Below, in pieces: positions 14,432 through 30,025 of a DNA stretch of 64,000 bases. A model generated the notes under the pieces. That model was not told where the DNA came from. It saw only the letters and a list, made by a program, of their open reading frames with translations, and searched no databases. Each line of letters starts with the position of its first letter. Position 1 is the stretch's first letter. Location: positions 15,458-79,457 of the forward strand of contig CAZMSD010000015.1 of NCBI GenBank assembly GCA_964568855.1, written 5' to 3'. The position numbers and the translations under genes were made by a program. This DNA is from an uncultured Bacteroidaceae bacterium (GTDB lineage: Bacteria; CAIWAD01).

Positions 14432-15305
14432 CGCTTCCACCTGTATCACCGGAATCTTTGAGCTTGTCGATGAAGCGCAGCCACAGGGCCGTATCGCGGT
14501 AACCGCGGGGTCGCAGGTCCTCGAAGGCGCCGCGGGCCTCGGCGTAACGGCCCGTGCGCGCCAGGGCGACGGCCCGCAGGTAGCGCTCGTCGCGCCCCCG
14601 GGGAGGCCGCCGGGTGAACTCGAGCAGCAGCCGGGACCAGGCACCGGCCGCACCCAGCGCTTCGAGGTCGCCGGTATCCAGATCGCCGACCGCCGTCCGG
14701 TATGCCTCGCAGATGTCGTTCGTCCGATCGGGATGCCTCAGCAGCAGGCGAACCAGGTCCCGATGATCCGGATCGGCTCCCGGGCGCCTGAGCAGCGCCA
14801 GGCAGGCCTCCGCGCCGCCGGCCCTCAGGGCCAGGTCCAGGCCTTCGCGGGGCAGCGAGGCGAAGCGCTCGAAGATGCTGTCGGGCGCCGTTTCCGGCGA
14901 CCTGCCCGTCTCCTCGGCTGCGGCCGCCAGGGCCCGCACCCAGCATTCGGCCATCGCGCGGCCGCCTCCCAGAGCGCGGTCCAGCAATCGGTAGATCGAA
15001 TCCCGTTCCGCCGGCGGGCGGGCGTCCGCCCAGCGGCAGAGATCCCGCCGCCAATCCGCCGGCAACCGGCCTTCCAGGGTTTCGGCCGCCGCCCGCAGGT
15101 CGCCGTCCTGCCAGCGCAGCCAGGCCAGCTGTCGCAATTCCTCGCTCGAGGGCCGGCCGCCGGCGGCGCGCAGCGATTCGAGCTGCTGCTCCAGCGCCTC
15201 TCTCGCGCGGGTCGTTTCCCCGGCGATCAGCAGGTCGCCCGGCGAGGGAGTCAGGTCGACGCAGGCGACGGTCCCTGCCAGGACAATCGGAACCAGCGCC
15301 CGCAT
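14424..15305 (-). CDS. alpha-helical (TPR-like) lipoprotein or secreted protein
   Basis: Signal/lipobox MRALVPIVLAGTVACVD. Ala/Arg/Leu-rich helices. 8-nt overlap with the adhesin gene start. Confidence 0.5.
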   Translation of the reverse strand: MRALVPIVLAGTVACVDLTPSPGDLLIAGETTRAREALEQQLESLRAAGGRPSSEELRQLAWLRWQDGDLRAAAETLEGRLPADWRRDLCRWADARPPAERDSIYRLLDRALGGGRAMAECWVRALAAAAEETGRSPETAPDSIFERFASLPREGLDLALRAGGAEACLALLRRPGADPDHRDLVRLLLRHPDRTNDICEAYRTAVGDLDTGDLEALGAAGAWSRLLLEFTRRPPRGRDERYLRAVALARTGRYAEARGAFEDLRPRGYRDTALWLRFIDKLKDSGDTGGSDG

Positions 15306-15345
15306 AATGTGGATCCGCCGGACTCTCATCCTTCCTACGAAATGC

Positions 15346-17262
15346 TCAATCCTTGAATACCCTGAAGTTACCGTTTCGCTCCGTGCTTCCCCGCCCGTCC
15401 AGGTATTCAAGAAAAGGTACGGAAAATCGACGCGCCGCCCCGTCCAGGGCCTTGCCCGCCTCGCTTACGGTGAAGCCATGTTCAGAATTATCGGACAGGC
15501 TCTTCAAGGTATTGAGCGCGCGTTTGAAGACGCCGCGGCTGAGGTGGATTTCGGGCGTGACCTGAACCACGCTGCCTTCGTTGCGGCACAAGGCCAGGAG
15601 GCGCTTGACCTCCGCCGTGCTCAGGTCGCGGCGGCTCGCGAGCTCGGCCGGGCGGGGAGCGCTGTAGGCGGCCTTCTCGAGCTCCGTCACCAGGCGGCGC
15701 ATCTGTTCGCGCAGTTCCTCGGGTACGCGCACTTCGTGCTCCCGAAGCGAGACGACTCCACCGTCGCGGGTCAGCGCGCCTGAGCCTTCCAGGGTTCCCA
15801 GCAGGTGCTCGAAGAAGGCCTGATCCCCGGAGGGCTGTCCCGTTCGCGGAAAGAGTTCGCTCCGCAACTGGGCGGAGGGCATCCCCGGCAGCTCGGGCCG
15901 CGATTCGTGATACTCCCTCAACTTATCGAGCAGCTTCGCCGAGATCCGCTCATGGATCTTCGTCGAGATGTAGACGGTGCGGCTGCCCAGCTCCAAGGCT
16001 GCCGCCGATCCCTCGTCCGCCAGCTTGCGGAGGGGTTGTCGCAGCTCCTCGAAGGTGGCGCCCGTCTTCTCCTGCAGCGCCTCCGCCGTCCACAGCGGGT
16101 CCTGCAGGCTGTGGAGGATTCCGTGCATTTGCCGGGCGAGGTCCTCGTCCGCGATGCGCTGCAGGCGCTCCACCACCTGCCCGGATCCCTGGCGGTGCTT
16201 GCGCGGCGTCGGATCGACCACTTCGCCGCCGCCGATGGTGACCTGGGGCGAATAGCGGCGTATCACGAACCGGTCGCCGGCCAGGGCGGTCACGAGGCTT
16301 TCCAGCCGCAGCTGCGCGTAGCAGGATTCGCCTCCCGCGAGTTCTTCACGGCCCAGCAGCACGGCCCTGGCCATCAGTTCGGAAGTTCCGACGTGTACCC
16401 GCAGGCGATCACGGTTGCGCAGGCGGAACGCCCCGGGCAGGATCTCCAGCCGGGCGTCGAGCATGTAACTCGGCTTCAGCACCCCGGGGCTCGCCAAGCA
16501 GTCGCCGCGCCGGACCTGGCCCAGCCCCACGCCCTGCAGGTTGACCGCCGCCCTGTCCCCCTGTTGCACCAGCTCTACCGCGTGCCCGTGGATCTGCAGG
16601 TTCCTGATCCGGGTGCGAGTGCCTCCGGGCAGGATTTCCACCTCGTCGCCGGCGGCGGCGGATCCGGAGATCACCGTGCCGGTCACCACGGTTCCATAGC
16701 CCTTGATGTTGAAAGCGCGGTCGACGAATTCGCGGAAGATACCGCGCCTGTCCGGCGGCGGCAGTTCCTCCAGCCGCGCGCGCAGGATTTCTCCAAGCTC
16801 GGGAATCCCCCTGCCGCTCAGCGAATCCACGCAGACAATCGGGCTGGATTCGAGAAAACTACCCGTGACGAAACTGCTCAACTCTTCGCGCACAAGCTCG
16901 AGCCATTCCTCCTCCACCGTGTCGACCTTGGTTATCACGGCCATGCCGTGTCGCACGCCCAGGAGGCGCAGGATGTCGAAGTGCTCGCGCGTCTGGGGCA
17001 TGATCCCGTCGTCGGCGGCCACCACCAGCAGGACGAAGTCCACGGTGGCCGCGCCGGTGACCATGTTCTTGATGAAGCGCTCGTGCCCGGGGACGTCGAT
17101 GACGGTGATGTTCTCGCCAAGGAAGGCGAATCCGAGGTCGATGGTAATCTGGCGCTGCTGTTCTTCCTTGAGCGTGTCGGTGTCCACGCCTGTGAGAGCC
17201 TTTACCAGGGCCGTCTTGCCGTGGTCGATGTGGCCGGCGGTTCCGATTACGATGTGAGACAT
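15346..17262 (-). CDS. selB: selenocysteine-specific translation elongation factor SelB
   Basis: N-terminus [25 protein letters not shown] with G1 to G4 GTPase motifs. 638 aa, with the C-terminal winged-helix extension typical of SelB. Confidence 0.9.
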
Positions 17263-17273
17263 TCCGTCCCCGT

Positions 17274-18053
17274 TCAGAGCTTGCGTTCCTTGCGGATCGC
17301 GGACCAGGCGTGCTGCAGGTTCTTGAACTTCTCTTCAGCGAAGGAGCGGTACTCGTCTCCAAGATGCGCGACGCGGTCGGGGTGGAATTTCTTGGCCAGT
17401 TCGCGGTAGGCCCTCTTCAGTTCCTCGTCGGCTGCCGAGGGATTCATGCCCAGAACCTCGTAGTGACTGCTCGCGGCGGCGGGCCCGCCGGCAGGCCGGC
17501 TGCTGCCGAAGACGGCCCGCAGGTCCTCTTCGCTGATCCCCAGCCTGCGGGCGATTTCCTGGACCGCGCGCGTCTCCTCCGGGTGCAGCTCGCCGTCGGC
17601 CATGGCGATGGTGAACAGGAAATGAAGGATTTCAAGCCGGTCGTGATACCCCATGTGGGCCGTGATCTGAGCGCAGATCTCGGAGACGTCGAACTCGCGC
17701 TCCAGGATCTGCCTGAGCATCTTGAGCATGTCCTGAGCGTTGTCCTGGCCAAATTGCGCCACCAGGAATTCTCGGACCTTGCGGACCTCGGAGGAAAGCA
17801 CGCGCCGGTCGGCGCGTATCACGTGCGCGCACAGCGCCAGCAGGGCCACCGCGAAGTTGCCGCCCAGATTCCGCTGGAAGCTTTCCTGGTGGCTGTTTAC
17901 GTATTCCGCGTTGCGGTAGTAGTTGTAGGGAATCTCCCGCGCTCGGCCGCGCTGGTCGAAGATGTTGCCGATCATTCCGCCGAAGAGCGCTCCCAGCGGG
18001 CCGAACATCGCCCACCCCAGACCGCCGCCGATCAGTTTGCCTGCCCAGGCCAT
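17274..18053 (-). CDS. djlA: co-chaperone DjlA (TerB domain plus C-terminal J domain)
   Basis: N-terminal Gly-rich transmembrane segment, a TerB-like central region, and a C-terminal J domain (YEVLGMNPSAADEELKRAYRELAKKFHPDR). Confidence 0.8.
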   Translation of the reverse strand: MAWAGKLIGGGLGWAMFGPLGALFGGMIGNIFDQRGRAREIPYNYYRNAEYVNSHQESFQRNLGGNFAVALLALCAHVIRADRRVLSSEVRKVREFLVAQFGQDNAQDMLKMLRQILEREFDVSEICAQITAHMGYHDRLEILHFLFTIAMADGELHPEETRAVQEIARRLGISEEDLRAVFGSSRPAGGPAAASSHYEVLGMNPSAADEELKRAYRELAKKFHPDRVAHLGDEYRSFAEEKFKNLQHAWSAIRKERKL

Positions 18054-18062
18054 TCCAGCTCC

Positions 18063-19577
18063 TTATCGTTTTGCAGCGTCGCCCAGGACCGCCGTCAGCG
18101 CGGCGGCCAGATCGGGCAGCTCGGATTCGTCCACCGTCTTCAGGTCCACCAGCAGAGCCTCGTCCCTGACCCTGCAAACCACCGCGGGTCGGCCCAGGCG
18201 CAACCGGCGGTGCAGCTGCTCGGCGGATCCGCCCGCGGCGCCGATGCGCAGCGCGGCGCTGGGCAGGTCCTGCTCCGGCAGCGCCCCTGATCCCGTCCGG
18301 GCTACGCTGTCGACCAGCCGGAGATTCTCCTCTTCCAGGCGATCCTCCAGCAACTCCGCCAGGCGGCGGGCGCGCTTTCTGACCGCCTCGCGCGGTTCCG
18401 TCAACATCCGGAACGCGGGCAGCTCGGCGGGCCGATCGCCCGCCTCGAGGTAGACCTGGAGCACCGCCTCGAGGGCGGCCAGGGACATCTTGTCGCAGCG
18501 CAACGCGCGCATCATGGGATTGCGGGCCAGTCGACGGACGAGTTCCCGCCGGCCGAGTACGATGCCGGCCTGCGGGCCGCCAAGCAGCTTGTCGCCGCTG
18601 AAACTGACCAGGTCGGCCCCCGCCTCGAGCGAGGCCGCGACCAGCGGCTCGGGTCGCTCGACGCCCGGGAAGTCAACCAGGGCGCCGCTGCCCAGGTCGT
18701 CCAGCAGCAGGACGCCGCGCTCGCGGGACAGCTCCGCCAACTCGGCCAACGGCACCTCGCTGGTGAAGCCGACGATCTTGAAGTTCGAGCTGTGCACCCT
18801 CAGCAGCGCCGCCGTCCCGGGCGTCAGGGCTTCCGCGTAGTCCCGCAGGTGGGTCCGGTTTGTAGTTCCCACCTCGACCAGTCGGCACCCGCTGCGGCGG
18901 ACCACGTCGGGGATCCTGAAGCCGCCGCCGATCTCCACCTGCTGCCCGCGTGATACAACGACACCGCGCCGGTTGCAGAGCGTGTTGAGCATCAGGTAGA
19001 CGGCCGCGGCGTTGTTGTTGCAGACCAGCGCGTCCTCCGCGCCGGTGAGGACCTTCAGCAGACCGCGGACCCGCTCTTCCCGTCGCCCGCGCCGTCCGGA
19101 ATCCAGCTCGTATTCCAGGTCGCAATAGCCGGCCAGGACCTCGTTCAACCTCGTGCGGACCCGCTCCGGCAGCGCGGCCCGACCGAGTCCCGTGTGCAGC
19201 ACGACGCCGGAGGCATTGATCACGCGCCTCATCCGCCCCGCCGACAGCGCCTCGACCCGCGAGCAGACCAGGGCCGCCAGCGCCTCGACGGCGGCCGGCC
19301 TGCGCACGCGCCCCGCCAGGATCCTCTCCCGCCGGCCCTCGATCACGTCGCGAACGATCCGTACGAGGTAGGACCGCGCGATGCGCTGCTCGAGCCCGCG
19401 CAGCCGCGGATGCCCCAGCAGTCGATCGACTCCGGGCAGGGAACGCAGCAGTTCCTCCCGGCCCGCGGACTCGTCCCGGTTGACGGACCCGACACTTGTA
19501 TCACTGTTGCACATGCTGCGATTGGTTCTGTCTGTTGAACGGCGGCGATGTAAGTTCTGGGCCCGTTTCCCGAGCAC
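18063..19577 (-). CDS. selA: L-seryl-tRNA(Sec) selenium transferase SelA
   Basis: PLP-enzyme motifs NNNAAAVYL and FSGDKLLGGPQAG. About 500 aa. Confidence 0.9.
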   Translation of the reverse strand: MLGKRAQNLHRRRSTDRTNRSMCNSDTSVGSVNRDESAGREELLRSLPGVDRLLGHPRLRGLEQRIARSYLVRIVRDVIEGRRERILAGRVRRPAAVEALAALVCSRVEALSAGRMRRVINASGVVLHTGLGRAALPERVRTRLNEVLAGYCDLEYELDSGRRGRREERVRGLLKVLTGAEDALVCNNNAAAVYLMLNTLCNRRGVVVSRGQQVEIGGGFRIPDVVRRSGCRLVEVGTTNRTHLRDYAEALTPGTAALLRVHSSNFKIVGFTSEVPLAELAELSRERGVLLLDDLGSGALVDFPGVERPEPLVAASLEAGADLVSFSGDKLLGGPQAGIVLGRRELVRRLARNPMMRALRCDKMSLAALEAVLQVYLEAGDRPAELPAFRMLTEPREAVRKRARRLAELLEDRLEEENLRLVDSVARTGSGALPEQDLPSAALRIGAAGGSAEQLHRRLRLGRPAVVCRVRDEALLVDLKTVDESELPDLAAALTAVLGDAAKR

Positions 19578-19601
19578 GCGCGCTCAGACGAGCGCGCGCA
19601 C

Positions 19602-21167
19602 TCAGAACTGCGTTCTGAGCGCGGCCTTTACGCCGTTGAAGGGCGGCACGTTGCGGCAGTTGCCGCTGCTGCACACCAGTCCGCCGCGCTGGCGTCCGGC
19701 GAACAGCGTGATGCTGTTCCTCAGATAATCTCCCAGGCGGAAATCCCAGCGCAGTTCCGTGGAGAACATCCAGTCGCGACCCGCGCCGCTGTGCTCTTCG
19801 TAATCGGCGGTCAGGTTGAGCGAGAAGTCCCGGACCGGAAACACGTCCGTCCAGACCAGGGCCGCCAGCCCCGTGCGGACCGGATTGCGGTCCCGCTTGA
19901 ACATCACTTCGCTGCTCCATTCCATGGAACGCAGCAGGGGAACCGGTGTCGACAGGGAGGCGCCCAGGCCGCCGCGCCGCGTCCACTCCCCCGGGTCGGG
20001 CTTGGCTTCCTCGGCGTAGGCCGCGGCGAGGACCAGGTGGCGGTCGTGCTCCCCCGCGTAGTCCCAGCCGGCCGTGTATTCCTGGTAGGCCGCGTAGCGC
20101 TGCTCCATCAGGGGCAGGTATGCGCCGTCGTCGATGTGCGAAGCCCAGGCGGCGCTGAAGCTCAACTCCGGGCCGTCCTCGAAATACCGTGATACATCCA
20201 GCTGCAGCCCAACCTCGTCCTCGAAGGTGTTCTGCCTGCGCTTGCGGGCGATCAGGCGCGTGGGAATCTCCCGCTGTACGATCGGCGGATTGTTGAAGCG
20301 CGGATCACCGCCGGCAAAGCGGTAATACTTGTGCTCGAGCTGCAGGAACCAGCCGAAGAGCGGTCCGCCGAGTGTGGAGTAGGTGGCCAGCCCGCCGGCG
20401 CCGGCGTTCCGGTCGAGTTGGTCGCGCTGGTGCTGGTCAAGGTGGTTGACCGAGAACTCCACCGGTCCGGCGGCTCCCGCTACGTAGATCTCGCGATTGT
20501 CGAGTTCCAGGCGGTCCGGGGTGTCCGACTGCACCACCGCGTCCGCGCTGACCCATGACGCGCCCATCGTGACGGGCGCGGTATATACTTCGGCGTTGGC
20601 CGCCTGCAGGTTCCCGTAGTAGTCCGAGCTGCCCGCCAGAGCTTTCAGGCCCCAGGACTCGCGCAGCACTTCGACGAAAAGGCCGTCGCAGGAATTGTCC
20701 CAGGTGGTGGGCGTCTCCACCCGCGCGGGATCCAGCAGCAGCGGATTGTCGAGGGTCTCGTCGCGGTAGAGCGAGAGCGCCAGGCCGTTGCCGAAGGTGG
20801 TCCAGGCGTTGCCCAGTCGAAGCGTCACGGGCCCCCGCCATTCCAGGTAGCGCCGGATCACGGCGTCACGGCTGACTCTCAGGGCCTCGTCCGTGCGGTC
20901 GGCTGGAAACTCGGCCGGGTGATACACGGCGGCGGCGACGTTCAGCACGATGTCGTTCCAGGCCGCGTCCACGTCGAGCACGTTCTCGCGGTACACCACG
21001 TGCGCGTCGTCCCCGAACTGGGTGCGCACGCTGCCCGTTCCCAGGTTGGCCGTGTTCACGCCCGACAGGCTGATGCCTGTCGCGTCTTCCTCGGCCGGCG
21101 CCAGGGCGGCGATCAGCAGGAGCGCCGTGAGACACACGAGCCAGGACCTTGATTCGGCCGGGCTCAC
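19602..21167 (-). CDS. outer-membrane beta-barrel protein
   Basis: Signal peptide MSPAESRSWLVCLTALLLIAALAPA. Alternating amphipathic strands. Ends in a C-terminal Phe (ALRTQF) with a CSSGNC motif. Confidence 0.6.
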   Translation of the reverse strand: MSPAESRSWLVCLTALLLIAALAPAEEDATGISLSGVNTANLGTGSVRTQFGDDAHVVYRENVLDVDAAWNDIVLNVAAAVYHPAEFPADRTDEALRVSRDAVIRRYLEWRGPVTLRLGNAWTTFGNGLALSLYRDETLDNPLLLDPARVETPTTWDNSCDGLFVEVLRESWGLKALAGSSDYYGNLQAANAEVYTAPVTMGASWVSADAVVQSDTPDRLELDNREIYVAGAAGPVEFSVNHLDQHQRDQLDRNAGAGGLATYSTLGGPLFGWFLQLEHKYYRFAGGDPRFNNPPIVQREIPTRLIARKRRQNTFEDEVGLQLDVSRYFEDGPELSFSAAWASHIDDGAYLPLMEQRYAAYQEYTAGWDYAGEHDRHLVLAAAYAEEAKPDPGEWTRRGGLGASLSTPVPLLRSMEWSSEVMFKRDRNPVRTGLAALVWTDVFPVRDFSLNLTADYEEHSGAGRDWMFSTELRWDFRLGDYLRNSITLFAGRQRGGLVCSSGNCRNVPPFNGVKAALRTQF

Positions 21168-21757
21168 CCTTCCTGCTCCGGCGATTCATGCTCGGGCCCG
21201 GGCGGCTCCTCCTCCACGGGCGGGTCCGCCGCTTCTTCCGGCGGCGCGTCCTGCGGGCCGGGCGCGGCGGCCAGCATGCCGGCGAGTTTCTGCTCGAGCT
21301 CCTTTTCGTCCCCGGGACGGTATCCGCTGTGCGCGTACAGCACTTCACCGTTCCGGCCAACCACCATGGTGTAGGGGGGATTGGAGCCCTTGAGCTGTTT
21401 CATGATCCTGCCGTTGGTATCCAGCAGCACCGGGCAGTCCCAGCCCTTGCCCCTCGCATAGGGTTTGACACGCTTCTGGCTGCGCGGGCTGTCCACGGAC
21501 ACCAGGACGAGCTGCAGGTCCCGTTCGCTGAGGCGTTCGACGATCTTGAACAGGTGCGGGATCTCCTTCTTGCAGGGTTCGCAGTAGGTGGCCCAGAAGC
21601 TGATCAGCACCGGGCCCTTGGCGCAGAGATCCGCCAGCTCCACCATTTTGCCGTCGAGCGCACGGAGCTTGAAGTCGGCCTTCTCGGCGACCGCGCCTCC
21701 GGCCAGGATCAGACTCAGCGTGATACAGAACAGGACTCGTGTCACTCGATCGGCCAT
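21164..21757 (-). CDS. thioredoxin-like thiol-disulfide oxidoreductase (TlpA/ResA family)
   Basis: The WATYCEPCKKEIP CxxC motif lies in a thioredoxin-fold context. N-terminal signal or membrane anchor. Confidence 0.8.
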   Translation of the reverse strand: MADRVTRVLFCITLSLILAGGAVAEKADFKLRALDGKMVELADLCAKGPVLISFWATYCEPCKKEIPHLFKIVERLSERDLQLVLVSVDSPRSQKRVKPYARGKGWDCPVLLDTNGRIMKQLKGSNPPYTMVVGRNGEVLYAHSGYRPGDEKELEQKLAGMLAAAPGPQDAPPEEAADPPVEEEPPGPEHESPEQEG

Positions 21758-21773
21758 AGATTACATTTCCGCC

Positions 21774-22889
21774 TTATCTCAGCAGCAGCATTTTTCCGGA
21801 ACGCTCGTACCAGGGGGTTTCCACTGTGTAGTAATAGGCGCCCGAGGGCAGGCCCGAAGCATCGAAGAGCTGCTCGTGCCGGCCGGCGGCGCGCGGCGCC
21901 GTTTCCGCCGGCAGGGCCACGGTCCTGCCGCCCAGGTCCAGGACCCTGATGGTCACGGGTCCGGGAGCGGGCATTAGGTAGGGTATGTGCGTCACGGGAT
22001 TGAAAGGATTGGGCCAGTTGTCCCGCAGCTCGAAATCCGCGGCAAGCGACGGTATGGCGCTCTCCGTGGTGGCGACGACGGCCAGTTCCTGGCTCAGCGT
22101 GTCCTCGGGACAGAACTCGCGGACGAAGGCCACTTCCAGCAGGGCGCTGCCGTGGCTGCGGGTGATGACTTCCACGTCGTAGTCGCACTCGGTCTCACTG
22201 ACCAGCAGGTCCTCGCCGGAGACCATGTCGCCGAAGAAAATCGGCAGGCAGAAGATGTCGCCGCGGCAGATCTGGTAGGTCCAGTCCTCGGGCCCCTCGA
22301 GCAGCCGCAGGATCAGGGTGATGGTCTCGTCCTGGAAGCCGGGGTTGGAGGCGTGATACCAGAAGTAGGCGCTGATTCCCTCGGGCGGGAACTCGTCGGC
22401 CTCGACGCTCACCTCGGTGCTGTCGCTGAGCGTGAATTCGCTGCACTGGGCCCGGGCGACGACGGCCAGTTCCTGGCTCAGCGTGTCCTCGGGACAGAAC
22501 TCGCGGACGAAGGCCACTTCCAGCAGGGCGCTGCCGTGGCTGCGGGTGATGACTTCCACGTCGTAGTCGCACTCGGTCTCACTGACCAGCAGGTCCTCGC
22601 CGGAGACCATGTCGCCGAAGAAAATCGGCAGGCAGAAGATGTCGCCGCGGCAGATCTGGTAGGTCCAGTCCTCGGGCCCCTCGAGCAGCCGCAGGATCAG
22701 GGTGATGGTCTCGTCCTGGAAGCCGGGGTTGGAGGCGTGATACCAGAAGTAGGCGCTGATTCCCTCGGGCGGGAACTCGTCGGCCTCGACGCTCACCTCG
22801 GTGCTGTCGCTGAGCGTGAATTCGCTGCACTGGGCCCGGGCGCCGGCGACCCAGGCCAGGGCGAGGATGAGCAGGATCCTGATCTTCAT
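21774..22889 (-). CDS. Cys-rich secreted protein with T9SS type-A C-terminal domain; contains a perfect tandem duplication of a 128-aa module
   Basis: Signal peptide MKIRILLILALAWVAGARA. Two identical 128-aa repeats (AQCSEFTLSDSTEVSVEADEF...ELAVVA). C-terminal PNPFNP...YYYTVE...KMLLLR Por sorting domain. Confidence 0.8.
   Translation of the reverse strand: MKIRILLILALAWVAGARAQCSEFTLSDSTEVSVEADEFPPEGISAYFWYHASNPGFQDETITLILRLLEGPEDWTYQICRGDIFCLPIFFGDMVSGEDLLVSETECDYDVEVITRSHGSALLEVAFVREFCPEDTLSQELAVVARAQCSEFTLSDSTEVSVEADEFPPEGISAYFWYHASNPGFQDETITLILRLLEGPEDWTYQICRGDIFCLPIFFGDMVSGEDLLVSETECDYDVEVITRSHGSALLEVAFVREFCPEDTLSQELAVVATTESAIPSLAADFELRDNWPNPFNPVTHIPYLMPAPGPVTIRVLDLGGRTVALPAETAPRAAGRHEQLFDASGLPSGAYYYTVETPWYERSGKMLLLR
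22073..22840. repeat. perfect 384-bp direct tandem duplication (2 copies) inside the T9SS cargo gene
   Basis: Nucleotides 22073-22456 are identical to 22457-22840 as read. The period is an in-frame multiple of 3. Confidence 0.85.
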
Positions 22890-22954
22890 CGTTCCTCCAG
22901 TACTGTTGGATGCCCCGCAGGTTCCGCTCCCGCCGGCACCGCGACGTCGCGAGC

Positions 22955-24217
22955 CTATTCGGCCAGCAGTTCCTCGACGATCGAAACCAGCGTCTCCTGC
23001 TCGAGCTGCCCGTGCACGGAGTGGATCACGCCGCGCCGGTCGAGGATGAAGTTCGTCGGGAAGACGCTCACGCCCGCAAGTTGCGCGACGGGGGGATCCA
23101 CCGAGTCCTCCAGGAAGCGGAAATCGTACCCGGGATTTTGCGCGATCCATTCATCCAGCACGCTCGGATCGCCGGTAATGTCCGCCTGCAGCGGGTCCAG
23201 GGCCAGGATACGGAAGCCTTCTCCGTGATACTCATCGAGCACCTCCTGCAGCATGGGAATCTCCTCCAGGCAGGGAGCGCAGGTGGTGAACCAGAAATTC
23301 ACCAGGACCACCCGGCCCCGGAACTGGCGCAGCGACAATTCCTGCGCGCCCGCCTCAGGCAGGGTGAAATCCTCGAAGAGACCGCCGGCCTGGTAACTCA
23401 GCTCCCCCGGTTCCCAGGCGAAGGACAGATCCGTGTCACAGATGCTGTCGAATAGAAACGCCGCCTCGCTCGAGACGACATGGGCCGGCAGGTAGGCGGA
23501 TACGAAGTGGGCGCCCATCAGGTTGATCAGGGCGGCGGCGTCGAGCAGGCCGGTGGCCTCCTCGTCGAGGATCAGCTCGGCCTCCGCGTCGCCGAGATCG
23601 ATGCTAAGCTGCGCGTCGTCGACCTCGATCAGCATGGCCGCCTGCTGAGGATCCTCGGCGAAGGAGAAAGTCGTGTCGCCGCGAACGCACTCCGCGTTGC
23701 CCACCGCGAGTTCATTTTCGACCAGGGGCGTAAACTGAACAAGGGCCGGAGTGAGGGTGGGCAGCGCCTCGCCGTTGAGCAGCAAGGGCAGGCCATCCAG
23801 CGTATCGCCGCCGGCCAGCATGGAAATCACGGTCATGGTGAACAGGGAATCCAGCCGCGGCAGGACCTCGATGGTCAGCGAGTCGACGTCCTGCTCATAG
23901 AAGAGGAAAGGCTGCTCGCCCGGTTCGAAATAGTTGTCAGTGTCGAAGGGCAGGAAACGCAGCACGTAGCTGCTGTCCAGGGGCAGCTCGTCGATCAGGT
24001 TCCACTGAGCGCCGTCCGGAGGGTAGAACCCTGCCGGCTCCCCGTTGAGATAGATCTGTCCATCCACGGGGCTCGAATCGTAGGCATCGATGGCGCGGAC
24101 ATAGAGCGCGCCGAGTTGTTCGACTTCGACCAGCTTGTCGATGCTGCAACCGGCGACCAGCATCAGGACCGAGAGGATCGACAGCGCGCTTTTGCATGTG
24201 AAACGAGGCATGGTCAA
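22955..24217 (-). CDS. lipoprotein with a C-terminal TlpA-like thioredoxin domain
   Basis: Lipobox LMLVAGCS. C-terminal FWFTTCAPCLEEIP CxxC thioredoxin fold. 420 aa. Confidence 0.75.
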   Translation of the reverse strand: MTMPRFTCKSALSILSVLMLVAGCSIDKLVEVEQLGALYVRAIDAYDSSPVDGQIYLNGEPAGFYPPDGAQWNLIDELPLDSSYVLRFLPFDTDNYFEPGEQPFLFYEQDVDSLTIEVLPRLDSLFTMTVISMLAGGDTLDGLPLLLNGEALPTLTPALVQFTPLVENELAVGNAECVRGDTTFSFAEDPQQAAMLIEVDDAQLSIDLGDAEAELILDEEATGLLDAAALINLMGAHFVSAYLPAHVVSSEAAFLFDSICDTDLSFAWEPGELSYQAGGLFEDFTLPEAGAQELSLRQFRGRVVLVNFWFTTCAPCLEEIPMLQEVLDEYHGEGFRILALDPLQADITGDPSVLDEWIAQNPGYDFRFLEDSVDPPVAQLAGVSVFPTNFILDRRGVIHSVHGQLEQETLVSIVEELLAE

Positions 24218-24327
24218 ATAAAGTAAGGAAGCCTCGGTGCGGCGGCAAGCACGCCCAGCTTGAAGGGATGTCCATCCAGCGGCGGCGGGCGGTTGGCGAC
24301 CTATTCAGAGTCGACCGTCTGTTGACG

Positions 24328-24360
24328 AGAGAAAAGCCCCGACCACACAAGGCCGGGGCC
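24328..24360 (-). terminator. Rho-independent terminator downstream of the lipoprotein gene
   Basis: On the minus strand, a GCCCCGGCC...GGTCGGGGC hairpin is followed by TTTTCTCTC. Confidence 0.6.
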
Positions 24361-24399
24361 CTCGATGCAAACGGCTTCAGCCGCCGTAGGAGAGGAGGA

Positions 24400-25236
24400 T
24401 TACTGGCTGATTTCGCCGGTCAGCGGATCCACGTTCCAGGTGTCTCCGTCGTCGAAGACCATCACGCCGCCGCCGTCGCCGAAGGTGATCGTCACTTCAC
24501 GCTCGATGGTGATGTTGCCGCGATGCGCCAGGTAGTAGATGTGGATCGTCCCCTCGATGGGAATCCGGCGCCCGTCGCGGCGGATCACGCGCAGGTCGGT
24601 TCCCGTGAGATCCAGGCTGAAGTCGTAGGGAATCGTCCGCTGGTTGCGGTAGACTTCACCTTCGCCGGCACGATGGTGCTCGCCGTTGACCATGGCGCCC
24701 GGCACCTCGTCGTGCAGCTCGCGGATCTCCCAGTCACCGGTGCCCGCCTTCTCGCCGCTGTGCCGGCGGTTCCAGCTGCTGCCGCTGAATTCGCGGGTGA
24801 AATCAACGGCCTTGACGCTGCCGTCGCCGGGAGGAACCACGATGCAGCCGCCTTCTTCATCCATGAAGTGCACGGTCCGCGTTTCCTCCCACTCGAAGCC
24901 CGACCAGGGGCCTTCGAAGGCATGATACCAATTCAGGGTCCAGGTGCAGGTGGTGCTGTCGAAGACCGCGTCGTCCGTTCTGTCGGACTTGTCCAGCCCG
25001 TCGGGCGTGTAGCTGTCGAAGCCTCCGCCGTCCACGTGCGTGTCGATGGTGTATTCGATGGCCTCCAGCGCTCCGCCCGACTCCAGCGCGATGCTCTCGC
25101 CGATGATGGATGCCGCTTCCTCGTTCTGTTCCGCCCGGGTCACAGTGTCCTGGTCGCCGAGTGAGTTGCTTTCCTGGCTGCAGCCGATCATCAGTCCCAC
25201 GCCGAGCAGGATAGCGGGAATCATTGCGCGTGTCAT
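24400..25236 (-). CDS. hypothetical lipoprotein
   Basis: Lipobox MIPAILLGVGLMIGCSQ. 278 aa. Carries its own AT-rich upstream region and its own terminator. Confidence 0.6.
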   Translation of the reverse strand: MTRAMIPAILLGVGLMIGCSQESNSLGDQDTVTRAEQNEEAASIIGESIALESGGALEAIEYTIDTHVDGGGFDSYTPDGLDKSDRTDDAVFDSTTCTWTLNWYHAFEGPWSGFEWEETRTVHFMDEEGGCIVVPPGDGSVKAVDFTREFSGSSWNRRHSGEKAGTGDWEIRELHDEVPGAMVNGEHHRAGEGEVYRNQRTIPYDFSLDLTGTDLRVIRRDGRRIPIEGTIHIYYLAHRGNITIEREVTITFGDGGGVMVFDDGDTWNVDPLTGEISQ

Positions 25237-25399
25237 CTTGAGCCTCCTTGGTTGTCCATCAATAGATACACGACTGGAACGGAGTCATCGGAAGATTATT
25301 GCTCGGGCTTGATCGAGATCGGAAGAAAGTCCCTCGGCCAGCAGGCTGGAAGCAGTATTTGAGAGTTGCGGGGGATGCGCAGGTTAAGGAATCGCTCGC

Positions 25400-25858
25400 T
25401 CAGGCTGATTCCCTGATGCTTGGCGGGATGCTGCTGGTGAAACCCAGTTCGTCGGCCACTTTCGTCAGCTGTTCCATCAACAGACCCTGTTCCGTCTCTG
25501 AACTGTCCTCCACCAGCCGGCGGATGCGATCGATTTCGTCGGCCATCATTTCCTGCAGGAAGCTATCGCCCTCGGAAGTGAGCTTGAGCAGGCTGTAACG
25601 CCGGTCTGATCCTTCATGGCGGCTGAGGAAGCCCCGCTGAACCAGGTGCTGCACCAGCGGGCTGATGCGACCCTTCTGCAGGCCGGTGCAATCTGTCAGG
25701 GTGCTCACACAAGTGAAAGGTGAATAGCTGGTCAGGATCAGGATTTTAAGCGCGGTGGCCGGCAGGTGTTCCTGCTTTGCCAGTCCGGTAATCCTGGAGG
25801 AAACCCCACAGGTCAGCTTGAGGACCTGTTCCAGTACTTTCCATTCACGGCTGCTCAT
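25400..25858 (-). CDS. MarR-family transcriptional regulator
   Basis: 152 aa with winged-helix core ...SPFTCVSTLTDCTGLQKGRISPLVQHLVQRGFLSRHEGSDRRYSLLKLTSEG. AT-rich promoter region upstream. Confidence 0.8.
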   Translation of the reverse strand: MSSREWKVLEQVLKLTCGVSSRITGLAKQEHLPATALKILILTSYSPFTCVSTLTDCTGLQKGRISPLVQHLVQRGFLSRHEGSDRRYSLLKLTSEGDSFLQEMMADEIDRIRRLVEDSSETEQGLLMEQLTKVADELGFTSSIPPSIRESA

Positions 25859-25977
25859 GGACGACCCCTCTCCCTTACCCTTATATGATGTAGATCAGTG
25901 ATGAAAATGGCAAGGAATACTGTTAAAAAATTGATTTTGTTTGCTATTTCAACTGGTTCCGTTATGAGGTAGAAAGC

Positions 25978-26050
25978 CCCCGCTCGCCGGATCGAGTATA
26001 AAGCCCCCACTCGCATGCACGAGCGGGCCCGCTCGCCGGATCGAGTATTA
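25978..26050. repeat. 23-nt direct repeat (x2) separated by 27 nt; a 16-nt perfect palindrome spans the junction
   Basis: cccgctcgccggatcgagtat(a/t)a occurs at 25978-26000 and 26028-26050. cgagcgggcccgctcg (26020-26035) is self-complementary and can pair with either repeat copy. Confidence 0.7.
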
Positions 26051-26182
26051 GGTGAAGTCCACGCCCGTGTCGTCGAGCTGCACATCTCCGGCGGTGAAAT
26101 CGTCGATCAGGATGTCGGCTGGTGCGGGACCAGCCAGGCCGGCCGCTAAGGCCATCAAGAGAAGGATTTTCAAACGAGCCAT
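26048..26182 (-). CDS. small secreted acidic peptide (44 aa), hypothetical
   Basis: Translates MARLKILLLMALAAGLAGPAPADILIDDFTAGDVQLDDTGVDFT*. AAAAGAGG Shine-Dalgarno lies 7 nt upstream. Below the ORF-track length cutoff. Confidence 0.4.
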   Translation of the reverse strand: MARLKILLLMALAAGLAGPAPADILIDDFTAGDVQLDDTGVDFT

Positions 26183-26242
26183 GGGGGTGCCTCTTTTCTA
26201 GGGGGTACGGTGGTTGTTTGATGTCGAGTCTATTCCTGAATT

Positions 26243-26280
26243 TGTCGGAATGAAAACCGCAAGGGTTGTGCCAGATTTGG
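26243..26280 (+). promoter_or_regulatory. degenerate copy of the TGTCGGAA...GCC(A/C)GAT(A/T)TTGG box
   Basis: tgtcggaatgaaaaccgcaagggttgtgccagatttgg. Related to the boxes at 30026 and 32195. Confidence 0.35.
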
Positions 26281-26463
26281 CCAGCTTTCCTCGTCTCCTC
26301 AGCCCTGAAAAACCAGGATGTTAGTGCAAATTATTGCACTACGCTACTCTGCCCATTGGCTGAATACGCCCGATTCTGGGCAATACTGCCAGTTCTTGCA
26401 CAGGTCTGGCTCGACAGCTCGATTCGACGCGTCAACCACCCCTTGCTCCCTCGGAAAGAGAAC

Positions 26464-26493
26464 GAGTCCCCCGATCGGTTGACCGGGGGACTC
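26464..26493 (-). terminator. Rho-independent terminator after T9SS cargo paralog C
   Basis: A gagtccccc...gggggactc hairpin; on the minus strand it is followed by a T-rich tract. Confidence 0.55.
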
Positions 26494-26524
26494 GGCGTGT
26501 TCGTCCGGATCCTGATCGTTGAAC

Positions 26525-28171
26525 CTACTTCACCAGCACCATTTTCCTCGTATCGGTCAAGCCGCCGGTCTCAAGCGTGTAGAAATAGACTCCGGCGGAC
26601 AACATGGATGCCTCGAATACTACGCTGTGAGCGCCGTGCTCCATCATGCCGTTCACCAGGACGGCCACTTCCGCACCGGTCACATTATAGACGCGCAGGC
26701 TGACCATGCCCGTCTCCGGCACGTGATACGCGATGGTGGTCGTCGGATTGAAGGGATTCGGATAATTCTGTACCAGCTCGAAGGCGGCGGTCTGCTCATC
26801 CGCGAAAACCGCGTCGCAGCAATCGCCCACCAGGCTGACCGCGTATGATCCGTAATCGCAGGCGTAACCGTTCACGCGCAGGTAGTAGCTGCCGGCGTCC
26901 AGCGCCACGTCGTCCAGGTAGGAGGTGAAACCCGTGCACCCCTGCGCCCATCCATCGTCGTTGTAGGCGATGTAAGTGCCCTCATCCCAGGCTGCGTCGC
27001 ATGGCGGCAGATCGTAGAGCCAGAGCTTGGTGTCGAAATCCGCCTGGTTGCAGGTGTAGATGTCCAGCACGCAGGGTTCGTCGACGCTGAAGCAGTACCA
27101 GTCCTCGGCGCACTCCTCGAGCAGCTCGCCGGAATAGTCGCCGCAGGCATCGTCCAGTTCCAGGTCGCAGACCCAGTCCTCGCAGGGATCGCCCTGTCCG
27201 CAGTCCCCCGACACGTCGACCCGCCAGGTGGTCTCGTCGGGTACGTGGTCGAAGCCGTCGGGCGCAATGATGAACATGTACTCGCCCGCATCCAACCCCA
27301 CCGTAAGGGAGAGTTCCTCGCTGCCGGCGAGGGTCTCGATCACATCAAGATCGTCGCAGTCGCCGGCGGCGATCCAGATGCGATAGTCGGCGATGCAGGA
27401 GAAGGCGTCGAAAGTAACCGTGCCGTCCGCGTCCAGCGTGAACAGGAACCAGTCCAGGTCCCGGGTGTTCAGGCCGGTGTCATCGTTGAGGAAGGTGAAC
27501 AGGGTGCCGCAGTAGGCCTCGCCGCACTCCATTTCGCCGTAGGTCTCCGGGTCGAAATTGCAGCCGCCGTTGGTCAGGTCCTCGTAGGGCGGGATGTTGC
27601 CGTAGTAGGGTTCATTCTCCGGGACGGCGTCCGTGCAGTCGGGGTCCTCGCAGGGCTCGTCGCCGCCACAGGATTCCGCGGTCACCCGGACGTGGCCGCC
27701 CACGTCGTTGTAGTCGGAGATCCAGATGTAGTACTCCTCGCCGCCGCTGAAGGTGAAATGTTCGCAGCCGAAGGAGGCATACCAGGCCGGCCACTGGCCC
27801 CCGCCGCCGTTACAGGGCTCGGTTCGGTCCCAGCCGGCCAGCCAGGAGAGGTTGGTGCAGGGGCCGAGGTAGATGTCCACGTTGGTATCGCCGTCCACCA
27901 CGCTTTCCTCGTGGCAGGTGGAGAACTCGAGCTGCGAATCCGTTGCGGGCGTGTAGCGCAGCCAGGCCCCCTCGGAGGTGATGTCGTATTCCGCTTCGAA
28001 GGGAAGCGTCAGGTCCACCGCCGACTCGCAGGTGGCGAAGCGCATGGCCGGGGCGCTGTGGGGCTGCCCGTCCTTGGTGACGGGCGGGCCTACCACGGCG
28101 AGGTCGGCGAAACCGGCGCCGGACAGCAGGCCCGTCAGCAGCGCCGCACTAAGAATCTTGATCCTGAACAT
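26525..28171 (-). CDS. Cys-rich secreted protein with T9SS type-A CTD (paralog C)
   Basis: Signal peptide MFRIKILSAALLTGLLSGAGFA. Many Cys and Asp residues. C-terminal QNYPNPFNPTTTIAYHVP...GVYFYTLE...KMVLVK. Confidence 0.8.
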   Translation of the reverse strand: MFRIKILSAALLTGLLSGAGFADLAVVGPPVTKDGQPHSAPAMRFATCESAVDLTLPFEAEYDITSEGAWLRYTPATDSQLEFSTCHEESVVDGDTNVDIYLGPCTNLSWLAGWDRTEPCNGGGGQWPAWYASFGCEHFTFSGGEEYYIWISDYNDVGGHVRVTAESCGGDEPCEDPDCTDAVPENEPYYGNIPPYEDLTNGGCNFDPETYGEMECGEAYCGTLFTFLNDDTGLNTRDLDWFLFTLDADGTVTFDAFSCIADYRIWIAAGDCDDLDVIETLAGSEELSLTVGLDAGEYMFIIAPDGFDHVPDETTWRVDVSGDCGQGDPCEDWVCDLELDDACGDYSGELLEECAEDWYCFSVDEPCVLDIYTCNQADFDTKLWLYDLPPCDAAWDEGTYIAYNDDGWAQGCTGFTSYLDDVALDAGSYYLRVNGYACDYGSYAVSLVGDCCDAVFADEQTAAFELVQNYPNPFNPTTTIAYHVPETGMVSLRVYNVTGAEVAVLVNGMMEHGAHSVVFEASMLSAGVYFYTLETGGLTDTRKMVLVK

Positions 28172-28500
28172 GGGGATCCTCCGTATTTCCATTCTGTGTC
28201 TGGTCGTTTCGTGATCCGATTCTGCCGGTTCCTCGTTGCGCAATTGTAATGCCAGTCACATCCGCGGGGGGCGGTTGTCTGCATGGTCAGCGTTTCCGAA
28301 GCTGAAATACTGGGATTACGAAGTGTGGAATTCAGAAAGGTATGGATTTCGGGCAGGACGCCGAATCAATCAAGCGGTAGTTCGGAAGGGCCAAAGTGGT
28401 TCATTTGGCTATTGACCGTGGAGATAACCCTCCAGCGGGCATGGTCGGCACCCCGATCGGTGAATAACACAACAAAAGGGCCCCGACCGCTTGGATGGGT

Positions 28501-28535
28501 AGAAAAAGCCCCCACCTGCAGGCGCAAGTGGGGGC
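28501..28535 (-). terminator. Rho-independent terminator after paralog B
   Basis: Minus strand reads GCCCCCACTTGCGCCTGCAGGTGGGGGC followed by TTTTTCT. Confidence 0.7.
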
Positions 28536-28590
28536 ATCGCAATCGCAACGTATGACGTTCTGCTTATTCAGCAGATGGGCAAGCCGTGGC

Positions 28591-29787
28591 TTACTTCAGA
28601 AGCACCATCTTCTTCGTGTTGCTGAAGTTCTCGGCTTCCAGCGTATAGAAATAGACGCCGGTGGCCAGGTCCGCAGCGTTGAAGGTGACCGTGTGCTCGC
28701 CCTGCTCGACCATTCCGCTCACCAGGGTGCTCACCAGGTCGCCGCTCAGGTTGTAGACCTGCAGGCTGACCTCGCCCGTCTGGGGCACGGAGAACTCGAT
28801 GGAGGTGGAGGGATTGAAGGGATTCGGGTAGTTCTGGCCCAGCGCGAAGTCCACGGGAACTTCCTCGGCCTCGCTGTAGGGGCAGTCCAGGACGCAGAGC
28901 AGGAAGTCTCCGCAGGCGGTATCGTAACCATCGACCGCGATGTAGGTGCGGCCGGCCGGCAGCCAGCAGCAGATCTCCGACTGCAGTCCGCAGCTGTCGT
29001 CGTTGCCGCCGATCTGCACGCCGTACTCATCGAAGAGCCCAACGCAGGTGTCGTAGGTGGATCCGCAGAGGTCGACCTGTACATGGGTAAGGTCCGCCAG
29101 GTCGACGTAATACCACATGTCCTTGCCCAGGCCGCTGCTGGCATAGAGCGTGTTCTTCCAGCAGAGACCGTACCCATACGGGCCCGTGGTGTCGGTGGCG
29201 TCGCAGGTGTTGCCCGCGATGCAGTCGCCGTTCAAGGTCACCGGCAGGGCTCCCGCCATGGTGTCGTTCTCGGGCGGCTCGGGCGGCGCGCCGCACTCGG
29301 TGAAGGACACTTCGAGAGTCATCGTGTCGGTCAGGTCGTCGCTGTAGTACTCATTGAACAGGATGTAGTGCATTACGCCGTCGGCGAAGATGAACTCATC
29401 GCAGTACAAGTAGGTCGCCCACGAAGCGTACTGGCAGTTGGAATCGCCGTCCCGGTAATAAACCTGGGTCAGGTTCTGGCAATCGCCCGTGTAGATCCAG
29501 AGCTGGGAGTCGAAGTTCGTGCCGGGCAGGCAGGTCTCGATTTCCAGTCCGTTGCCGTCTCCCATGTACGAGAACCACACCTGACCGGGACCAACCTCGT
29601 TGTAGGTGGTGCCCACGACCACCGGAATGGCCGTGTCGCAGTCGTTGGCCCGGGGCGTGTAGTCGCCCTGCGAAGCGGCGTAGATCTTGCGATCCAGTTC
29701 CGAGTCGGCGAAAGCCGTGGCGCAGGTTCCAGCCATCACGGCCATCGCAAGAATGTACCTCACATTCATCATCGTCTCTCCTTTCAC
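28591..29787 (-). CDS. Cys-rich secreted protein with T9SS type-A CTD (paralog B)
   Basis: Signal peptide MMNVRYILAMAVMAGTCATAFA. C-terminal GQNYPNPFNPSTSIEFSVP...GVYFYTLE...KMVLLK. Confidence 0.8.
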   Translation of the reverse strand: MKGETMMNVRYILAMAVMAGTCATAFADSELDRKIYAASQGDYTPRANDCDTAIPVVVGTTYNEVGPGQVWFSYMGDGNGLEIETCLPGTNFDSQLWIYTGDCQNLTQVYYRDGDSNCQYASWATYLYCDEFIFADGVMHYILFNEYYSDDLTDTMTLEVSFTECGAPPEPPENDTMAGALPVTLNGDCIAGNTCDATDTTGPYGYGLCWKNTLYASSGLGKDMWYYVDLADLTHVQVDLCGSTYDTCVGLFDEYGVQIGGNDDSCGLQSEICCWLPAGRTYIAVDGYDTACGDFLLCVLDCPYSEAEEVPVDFALGQNYPNPFNPSTSIEFSVPQTGEVSLQVYNLSGDLVSTLVSGMVEQGEHTVTFNAADLATGVYFYTLEAENFSNTKKMVLLK

Positions 29788-30025
29788 AGTCCTGAGTTAG
29801 GGGTATATCTGGATGTCTTTTCGTCAGACCATGGGAAACGCGCTGATGGTGCTGCGCATCAGCGAAGTTGACTGTTGTTCAAAGCTGTTTCCAGGCTTCA
29901 GGACAAGCTGCTAACCGCAAAATGCGCGCCATTCTCGGTTGAAAGCAGCATAACATTGAAATTGTTGTTTTTAATCGAATTCCAGCCTATCGCAGGAGTA
30001 CTGAATGTCCCTTCAGTTTGTAAGC

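Follow-up and report, generated by a model that had tools for sequence, protein, structure and literature searches.

The duplicated gene and its product

The window, by which we mean the whole 64-kb stretch of DNA that was analysed, carries on its minus strand a gene for a putative secreted protein of 371 aa (21774..22889). The translation is intact from an ATG at 22889-22887 to a stop codon at 21774-21776, and a Shine-Dalgarno-like GGAGGA motif (22893..22898, minus strand) can be read in the sequence 3 nt upstream of the ATG. From the N-terminus, the product comprises a signal peptide, two identical modules of 128 aa, a disordered linker and, at the C-terminus, a sorting domain of T9SS type; the single-copy ancestral allele encodes 243 aa. 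The predicted signal peptide (M1-A19, MKIRILLILALAWVAGARA; 22833..22889, minus strand) forms a helix over residues 2-19 in the model and ends in an A-x-A site, after which the mature protein would begin with QC. A19-Q20-C21 is invariant in the alignment of the family. Judged by model and sequence together, the protein probably bears the N-terminal Sec signal peptide that is expected of a T9SS cargo protein.

Positions 22073-22456 and 22457-22840 of the window are identical at every base, and a perfect 384-bp tandem duplication, as named in the original prediction, was found to hold when the two copies were compared. TRF reported a single array at 22071-22842 (period 384, 2.0 copies, 100% matches, 0 indels, score 1544), the only tandem repeat in the 64-kb window with a score of at least 100. 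Identity at a period of 384 extends over 388 positions (22071-22458 against 22455-22842), that is, one unit plus 4 bp, and a perfect repeat of 384 bp cannot have arisen by chance. Set in codon phase, TRF and base comparison place copy 1 at R18-A145 (22455..22838, minus strand) and copy 2, with identical nucleotides, at R146-A273 (22071..22454, minus strand), each 128 aa long. The junction between them reads ...GGCCGTCGTCGCC|CGGGCCCAGTGC..., or ...GAACTGGCCGTCGTCGCC|CGGGCCCAGTGCAGC... on the coding strand. The duplication is in frame, as had been claimed, with a minus-strand ORF of 371 aa that contains no stop and no frameshift. The count of six cysteines per module had to be corrected: each module contains five (C21, C80, C86, C107 and C132 in copy 1), four of which are invariant across the family alignment.

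We modelled the 243-aa one-copy protein from an alignment of seven sequences. In this model, a beta-sandwich domain spans residues 21-146 (block-mean pLDDT 86-95 over residues 21-130 and approximately 80 up to residue 146), residues 149-167 of the linker have a pLDDT below 50, and a C-terminal beta-sandwich occupies residues 171-241. The low-confidence linker corresponds approximately to T274-D295 of the two-copy protein (22005..22070, minus strand) and to residues 146-167 of the single-copy protein. Modelled alone, the module gave a pLDDT of 90.7 and a pTM of 0.84, with 10 strands. Because the modelled domain covers residues 21-146, the duplicated segment R18-A145 amounts to the entire N-terminal domain together with the last two residues of the signal peptide. 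Both breakpoints sit just outside the modelled fold, and both copies should therefore be able to fold.

The C-terminal beta-sandwich (21777..22004, minus strand) resembles a T9SS type A sorting domain (Por_Secre_tail / FlgD_ig-like) in profiles and model, the resemblance covering the last ~80 aa of the protein. Many T9SS-CTD proteins align to this domain with E-values from 1e-15 to 1e-9, and five of the seven family members match both PF18962 and TIGR04183 (best E 2.4e-7 and 1.3e-7, respectively). The window protein itself scores 21.2 bits against PF18962 (cut-off 27) and 17.4 against TIGR04183 (cut-off 23), below the cut-off in both cases. The earlier description of the gene as encoding T9SS cargo thus stands at the level of the domain, through the relatives that match Por_Secre_tail, while the protein's own C-terminal domain falls short of the Pfam and TIGRFAM cut-offs. 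Two further proteins of the window gave matches of their own: one encoded at 26528-28243 passes PF18962 (33.1 bits), and another of 1436 aa has a weak CHU_C match.

Searched alone against Pfam and NCBIfam, the module matched no family. Its profile, run against 1.84 billion representative proteins, recovered only seven full-length relatives (E ≤ 1e-10), all of them 243-253 aa in length with a single module at approximately residues 20-150; the six nearest homologues have 243-251 aa. A search of genome contigs with the family alignment was dominated by the generic NPFNP pattern of C-terminal domains and yielded no relative over the full length. A closed chromosome of 3,721,866 bp encodes a 248-aa single-module orthologue, which is 38% identical over its full length and lies in the same gene cluster, and the SelB of this chromosome is 58% identical to that of the window. 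When repeat number was compared, every orthologue proved to have one module. Since the family representatives and the orthologues are all single-module, we take one module to be the ancestral state.

The gene upstream (22955..24211, minus strand) encodes a protein of 418 aa whose leader (LVAGC) resembles that of a lipoprotein and whose C-terminal part has an AhpC/TSA-Redoxin fold with a CAPC motif, and the gene downstream (21164..21757, minus strand) a TlpA/ResA-like thioredoxin-fold protein of 197 aa with a CEPC motif. The positions of both genes are conserved in orthologous clusters, in which the shared order is a 152-aa gene, a 278-aa gene, AhpC/TSA-Redoxin (~420 aa), the module protein, AhpC/TSA-thioredoxin (~170-197 aa), DUF6029, SelA, a DjlA-like DnaJ/TerB protein and SelB. 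The CAPC and CEPC redoxin neighbours, together with the four invariant cysteines, suggest that the module may be disulfide-bonded in the periplasm or at the surface. A search of Rfam over positions 14000-30000 returned no matches.

One-copy and two-copy contigs

In the protein collection, the 243-aa product (P0001) is recorded on at least six contigs (JGI 3300009431, 3300009008, 3300013119 and 3300007510; ENA ERZ23498658 and ERZ23498660) and the 371-aa product (P0100) on one contig of 107,292 bp. At the nucleotide level, the entries L001-L006, L090-L092 and L096-L097 represent nine distinct contigs that pass from flank to flank through one copy. These come from seven samples (3300009431, 3300009008, 3300013119, 3300009320, 3300007510, SAMN10231893 and SAMN10231913). 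Labels such as SUTE22-1 and SAMN1023xxxx might point to the Cariaco Basin project (PMC9902471), a link on which none of the conclusions rests. There are no SNPs within the gene across the 20 locus entries compared. Over 20.7 kb, the 107-kb JGI contig L001 agrees with the window at 100% identity apart from two repeat-linked length differences, one being the 384-bp unit and the other an indel of 49 bp near 26000.

A 371-aa product found on one contig only, against at least six for the 243-aa product, and a long contig that departs from the window only at repeat-linked length differences would both fit an assembly artefact, in which a single copy in the true genome was expanded by the assembler or scaffolder, for example through a spurious loop or by placing overlapping contigs end to end. 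Misassemblies do exist in these data; L005, for example, has a 231-nt AT-rich chimeric head. The contigs that break within the gene, which were found by looking up both flanking genes, argue against this explanation. L093 (JGI 3300013118, 11,600 bp) matches window positions 22567..18164 at 100% identity and without gaps; it carries the last 113 nt of copy 1, crosses the junction and continues through the whole of copy 2 into 3.9 kb of unique right flank, with the junction 30-mer at L093 position 94. L098 (JGI 3300009314, 7,998 bp) matches positions 27211..22365, likewise at 100% and gapless, and this match takes in 4.4 kb of unique left flank and copy 1, crosses the junction and extends 94 nt into copy 2. 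The novel junction is therefore present in two more contigs that derive from other samples and extend into unique flank, one to the right and the other to the left. Because it shares only 4 bp with the parental sequence, graph assemblers are unable to make it from reads that do not contain it, and its presence in at least two further assemblies of differently numbered samples leads us to conclude that real DNA carries the two-copy allele. The L093 and L098 assemblies differ from the MAG of the window, although the JGI samples may not be fully independent of the MAG data. Scans of a further collection of genome and metagenome contigs returned neither the junction 30-mer nor a control 26-mer present in the JGI contigs L001, L003 and L004, so they carry no weight for or against the junction.

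The positions at which other contigs break point in the same direction. L095 (Logan, SRR8062346) starts at 22100, exactly 30 nt before 22070, which is the first base where the junction path and the right-flank path diverge. We take the Logan assembly to have been built with k=31; because the paths diverge at 22070, a k=31 unitig of the right flank must start k-1 = 30 nt upstream, at 22100, and the contig boundary thus corresponds exactly to the branch base of the loop. L094 (JGI 3300009128) starts within the repeat, 119 nt before the 22070 divergence point. The window contains no Ns, and a duplication that is both in frame and bounded by a whole domain would be a surprising coincidence for an artefact, given our rough estimate that, of a thousand random breakpoint pairs in the gene, about one would preserve both the frame and the domain. 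The artefact had been offered as the alternative in the original prediction; with the junction in L093 and L098 and the break of L095 at the required de Bruijn branch point, we now regard it as highly unlikely.

The converse possibility is that the duplication is fixed in the population and that the one-copy contigs are collapsed repeats, the apparent polymorphism being a product of inconsistent assembly. Collapse of perfect repeats longer than k or than the read length is a common failure of assemblers, and L093, L094, L095, L098 and L103 all break inside or near the repeat. Some of the one-copy contigs could be collapsed in this way. However, the nine contigs that pass through one copy between unique flanks were obtained from seven samples and with at least two pipelines, and a junction edge at full coverage would be expected to make graph assemblers break or loop rather than skip the unit. 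Sister samples also show opposite states (one-copy in 3300009320 and the junction in 3300009314; one-copy in 3300013119 and the junction in 3300013118), and one copy is the ancestral architecture. We therefore consider fixation with collapse to be very unlikely.

That the two-copy allele and its one-copy ancestor occur side by side in related samples is shown by contigs rather than by read counts. The copy-number variability that had been proposed is borne out by single-copy contigs with identical gene sequence in seven other samples and by orthologues that are all single-module, and the very recent date assigned to the duplication agrees with the zero divergence between the copies and the continued presence of the parent allele. 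The further suggestion of a recurrent hotspot found no such backing, only one-copy and two-copy states having been seen.

Origin of the duplication

Base comparison of the breakpoints identified the junction microhomology GGCG (plus strand; CGCC in the coding direction) at 22455-22458, and also at 22071-22074 and 22839-22842. The match extends to 8 of 10 bases over GGCGNCGNCG, and the matching bases encode Ala/Val/Gly codons at the end of the signal peptide (AGAR) and at the end of the domain (AVVA). A random 384-bp duplication in the window would show 4 bp or more of microhomology with a probability of 0.034, which is only weakly significant, and the breakpoints are compatible with microhomology-mediated slippage. 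Hairpin-driven breakpoints were considered and rejected, as folding of 61 nt of DNA around each breakpoint was unremarkable (z -0.35 and +0.87).

We consider it very probable that the locus carries a genuine and very young intragenic tandem duplication that is segregating with its parent allele. Within a population that is otherwise clonal, one lineage would have acquired a head-to-tail copy of a 384-bp segment, either by replication slippage or template switching or by illegitimate recombination between short GC-rich direct repeats 384 bp apart. The copied segment would have included the last two residues of the signal peptide and the complete N-terminal beta-sandwich domain, and the outcome would be an intact ORF encoding signal peptide, domain, domain, linker and T9SS-type C-terminal sorting domain. 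As is generally known of tandem duplications, 384 bp of perfect homology would permit RecA-dependent unequal exchange with frequent loss or gain of copies, and for this reason the locus should be intrinsically length-variable. On a surface-attached or secreted protein, two lectin-like or PorA-N-like modules might double the valency or lengthen the reach.

Microhomology-mediated tandem duplication, followed by RecA-dependent expansion or loss, is part of the general duplication-amplification dynamics of bacteria, a subject on which Roth and Andersson have reportedly worked. The locus resembles these dynamics in the few-bp microhomology at the join, the head-to-tail arrangement, the perfect copies and the coexisting parental allele, but it differs in that the event is intragenic and domain-exact instead of a multi-gene amplification. 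A cluster of overlapping 6-bp palindromes was also observed at the left breakpoint.

Known systems, and contig ends upstream of the repeat

The closest concept for the locus is the class of Periscope Proteins, which are variable-length bacterial surface proteins with near-identical tandem domain repeats, the number of which varies by intragenic recombination; examples include SasG/Aap G5-E, Rib, Sgo_0707 SHIRT and CdrA (PMC8201768). Like these, the protein is predicted to be surface-targeted and has tandem repeats, here of 128 aa, each modelled as a globular beta-rich domain and sharing 100% DNA identity. Repeat number likewise differs between near-identical genomes, judging from contigs only (the window, L093 and L098 against the one-copy contigs), and the presumed mechanism of change is intragenic homologous recombination. 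Unlike Periscope Proteins, it has two copies only, and no other family member has repeats. Its repeat is not a stalk but the only non-sorting domain, with no extra distal functional domain, and its predicted attachment signal is a T9SS-type C-terminal domain, whereas theirs are LPXTG or T1SS/T5SS signals.

These similarities raise the question of whether the locus is a selected contingency locus, at which diversifying or fluctuating selection on repeat number maintains the one-copy/two-copy polymorphism, as in Periscope adhesins. Recovery of both alleles in several samples with no SNPs in the gene would be consistent with such selection, as would a duplication that is in frame and domain-exact in a protein with a putative surface-targeting C-terminal domain, and high DNA identity of repeats is known to favour changes in their number (PMC8201768). 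However, just two states were seen, and with every orthologue limited to a single module, the family shows no past variation in repeat number. What is repeated is moreover the sole functional domain and not a stalk, and a neutral or transient duplication accounts for the same data. Maintenance by selection on repeat number is, in our assessment, unlikely.

A second point of comparison is the Porphyromonas gingivalis protein PorA (PGN_0123), which is small, carries a T9SS CTD and acts as a ligand of the PorXY-SigP pathway (PMC7712824; PDB 6KJK). PorA has 246 aa and consists of a signal peptide, a 10-strand Ig-like N-domain that resembles FimH and a CTD, with Gln28 as its mature N-terminus (PMC7712824). 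The one-copy protein has 243 aa, the same layout, a modelled 10-strand N-domain and a predicted mature N-terminus at Gln20. In a Foldseek search of the PDB with the module model, the best match was 6KJK (PorA N-domain; E 8.9e-6, TM 0.57/0.55, 13% identity), followed by FmlH/FimH-type lectin domains, complement C3 MG domains and PapD-like domains. A TM of 0.57/0.55 to PorA-N is at the level of a generic beta-sandwich, and the scores of the C3 MG and PapD-like domains are similar. Searched as a profile against all PDB sequences, the module gave no match at E ≤ 10. Unlike PorA, the module has four invariant cysteines, and its gene lies in the conserved redoxin/DUF6029/selA/selB cluster. Homology of the module to a PorA/FimH-type surface binding module is accordingly doubtful; it is plausible that the module works like one, by analogy and not by membership.

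The locus is best classed as a recent tandem duplication polymorphism with domain-exact boundaries, a known kind of event seen here in an uncharacterised family of an uncultured organism. A more far-reaching interpretation is that it represents a nascent surface protein of variable length or valency at its first step, from one module to two, with both alleles kept by selection on the display of a PorA/FimH-like module by T9SS. We give this interpretation only a small chance; if true, it would provide a natural example of a Periscope-type repeat protein born from a single-domain ancestor.

Current understanding is not overturned by these findings, and their value is chiefly methodological and illustrative. 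Perfect tandem duplications in MAGs are usually dismissed as possible misassemblies, and the present case indicates that they can be validated without reads, from the novel junction in independent assemblies and from the positions where de Bruijn contigs break. A zero-divergence, domain-exact duplication still segregating in a wild population alongside the allele it arose from would correspond to the earliest stage on the way to multi-repeat surface proteins. The analysis also flags a tiny uncharacterised family with a PorA-like architecture, four invariant cysteines and a mature N-terminal Gln, the genes for which lie in a conserved cluster that also contains two TlpA-like redoxins, DUF6029, selA and selB.

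A separate observation concerns the region upstream of the repeat. Four short contigs from four samples (L099-L102) stop at 22900 or 22902, within the spacer that immediately precedes the RBS, and a fifth contig ends at 22832. The ends at 22900-22902 are not accounted for by the duplication. An invertible promoter at this position was considered and rejected, there being no inverted repeats, and neither a SNP nor a microhomology partner for a deletion was found for the contig ends at 22900-22902. The identical end in k=31 and JGI assemblies suggests that the sequence has another genuine continuation, which would be a third allele.

Mature N-terminus of the module protein

In the family alignment (A1), the Gln-Cys pair that comes directly after the signal-peptidase site of the module protein (A19-Q20-C21; window positions 22830-22834) is invariant in all family members. 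Since the signal-peptidase site is followed by this invariant pair, the mature module protein would begin with Gln, and an N-terminal Gln suggests pyroglutamate formation, as is known from cargo proteins of P. gingivalis. The allele with the 384-bp duplication has two copies of the module, and its second Gln-Cys is internal. The mature start of PorA, a P. gingivalis protein with a T9SS C-terminal sorting domain (CTD), is likewise Gln (Q28; PMC7712824).

Conserved gene cluster and other T9SS-type signals

The gene cluster at 15346-25236 (minus strand) is kept in the orthologous loci of relatives (L087, L088, L089 and L104), with 38-46% identity to these orthologues; one such locus lies on a closed 3.72-Mb chromosome. 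It comprises, in order, genes for a 278-aa unknown protein, a lipoprotein-like AhpC/TSA redoxin (CAPC), the module protein, a TlpA-like redoxin (CEPC), DUF6029, SelA, a DjlA-like DnaJ/TerB protein and SelB. Here the selenocysteine machinery is tied to a pair of redoxins and to a CTD protein that is secreted and rich in Cys. In related loci, SelB is adjoined by orthologues of a 1436-aa protein encoded in the window at 10346-14653 (minus strand), whose C-terminus has a weak match of 21.3 bits, under the cut-off, to CHU_C, a type B T9SS signal.

Three direct-repeat copies of 278 nt each (26526-26803, 28592-28869 and 30327-30604), at 69-72% identity, coincide with the segments that encode the C-terminal sorting domain in three paralogous Por_Secre_tail genes lying near one another. 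In the metagenome contig L001 these genes encode proteins of 548, 384 and 548 aa.

Further variation among contigs of the locus

A second length polymorphism in the population is a 49-bp segment at 25978-26027, in the intergenic spacer that separates a MarR-like gene (152 aa) from the Por_Secre_tail gene whose end lies at 26525. The segment is flanked by 21-bp direct repeats (ATACTCGATCCGGCGAGCGGG), and TRF called a two-copy repeat here with a 27-bp unit and 78% identity. It is present in the window and in contig L003 and absent from L001, and the start of contig L002 falls within it. This difference looks like another direct-repeat-mediated indel in the same population.

The few SNPs among the locus contigs are tightly clustered at 20420-20444, 20772-20821 and 23042-23048 (four in 25 nt in L003 and L092, five in 50 nt in L005 and three in 7 nt in L006). 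Such clustering, together with the identity of the remainder of ~20 kb among contigs, points to short tracts of recombination or to errors at contig ends, and not to clock-like divergence.

L005 (ENA ERZ23498660 scaffold_84197) opens with 231 nt that are AT-rich, bear no relation to the window and are joined to the locus sequence at 23540, at a GCCGCCGCCGCC run within the 418-aa redoxin gene, the fusion yielding a spurious 187-aa product (P0122). This head looks like a chimeric join between genomes, and these data sets therefore do contain misassemblies.

Four contigs from different samples and assemblers end just upstream of the ribosome-binding site of the module-protein gene, at 22902 (L099, Logan; L100, JGI) or 22900 (L101, ENA; L102, JGI), and L103 ends at 22832, inside the GGGCCCGGGCGCCGGCG palindrome cluster. 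These ends are unaccounted for by the 384-bp duplication; they could represent a third structural allele or mark a systematic drop in coverage.
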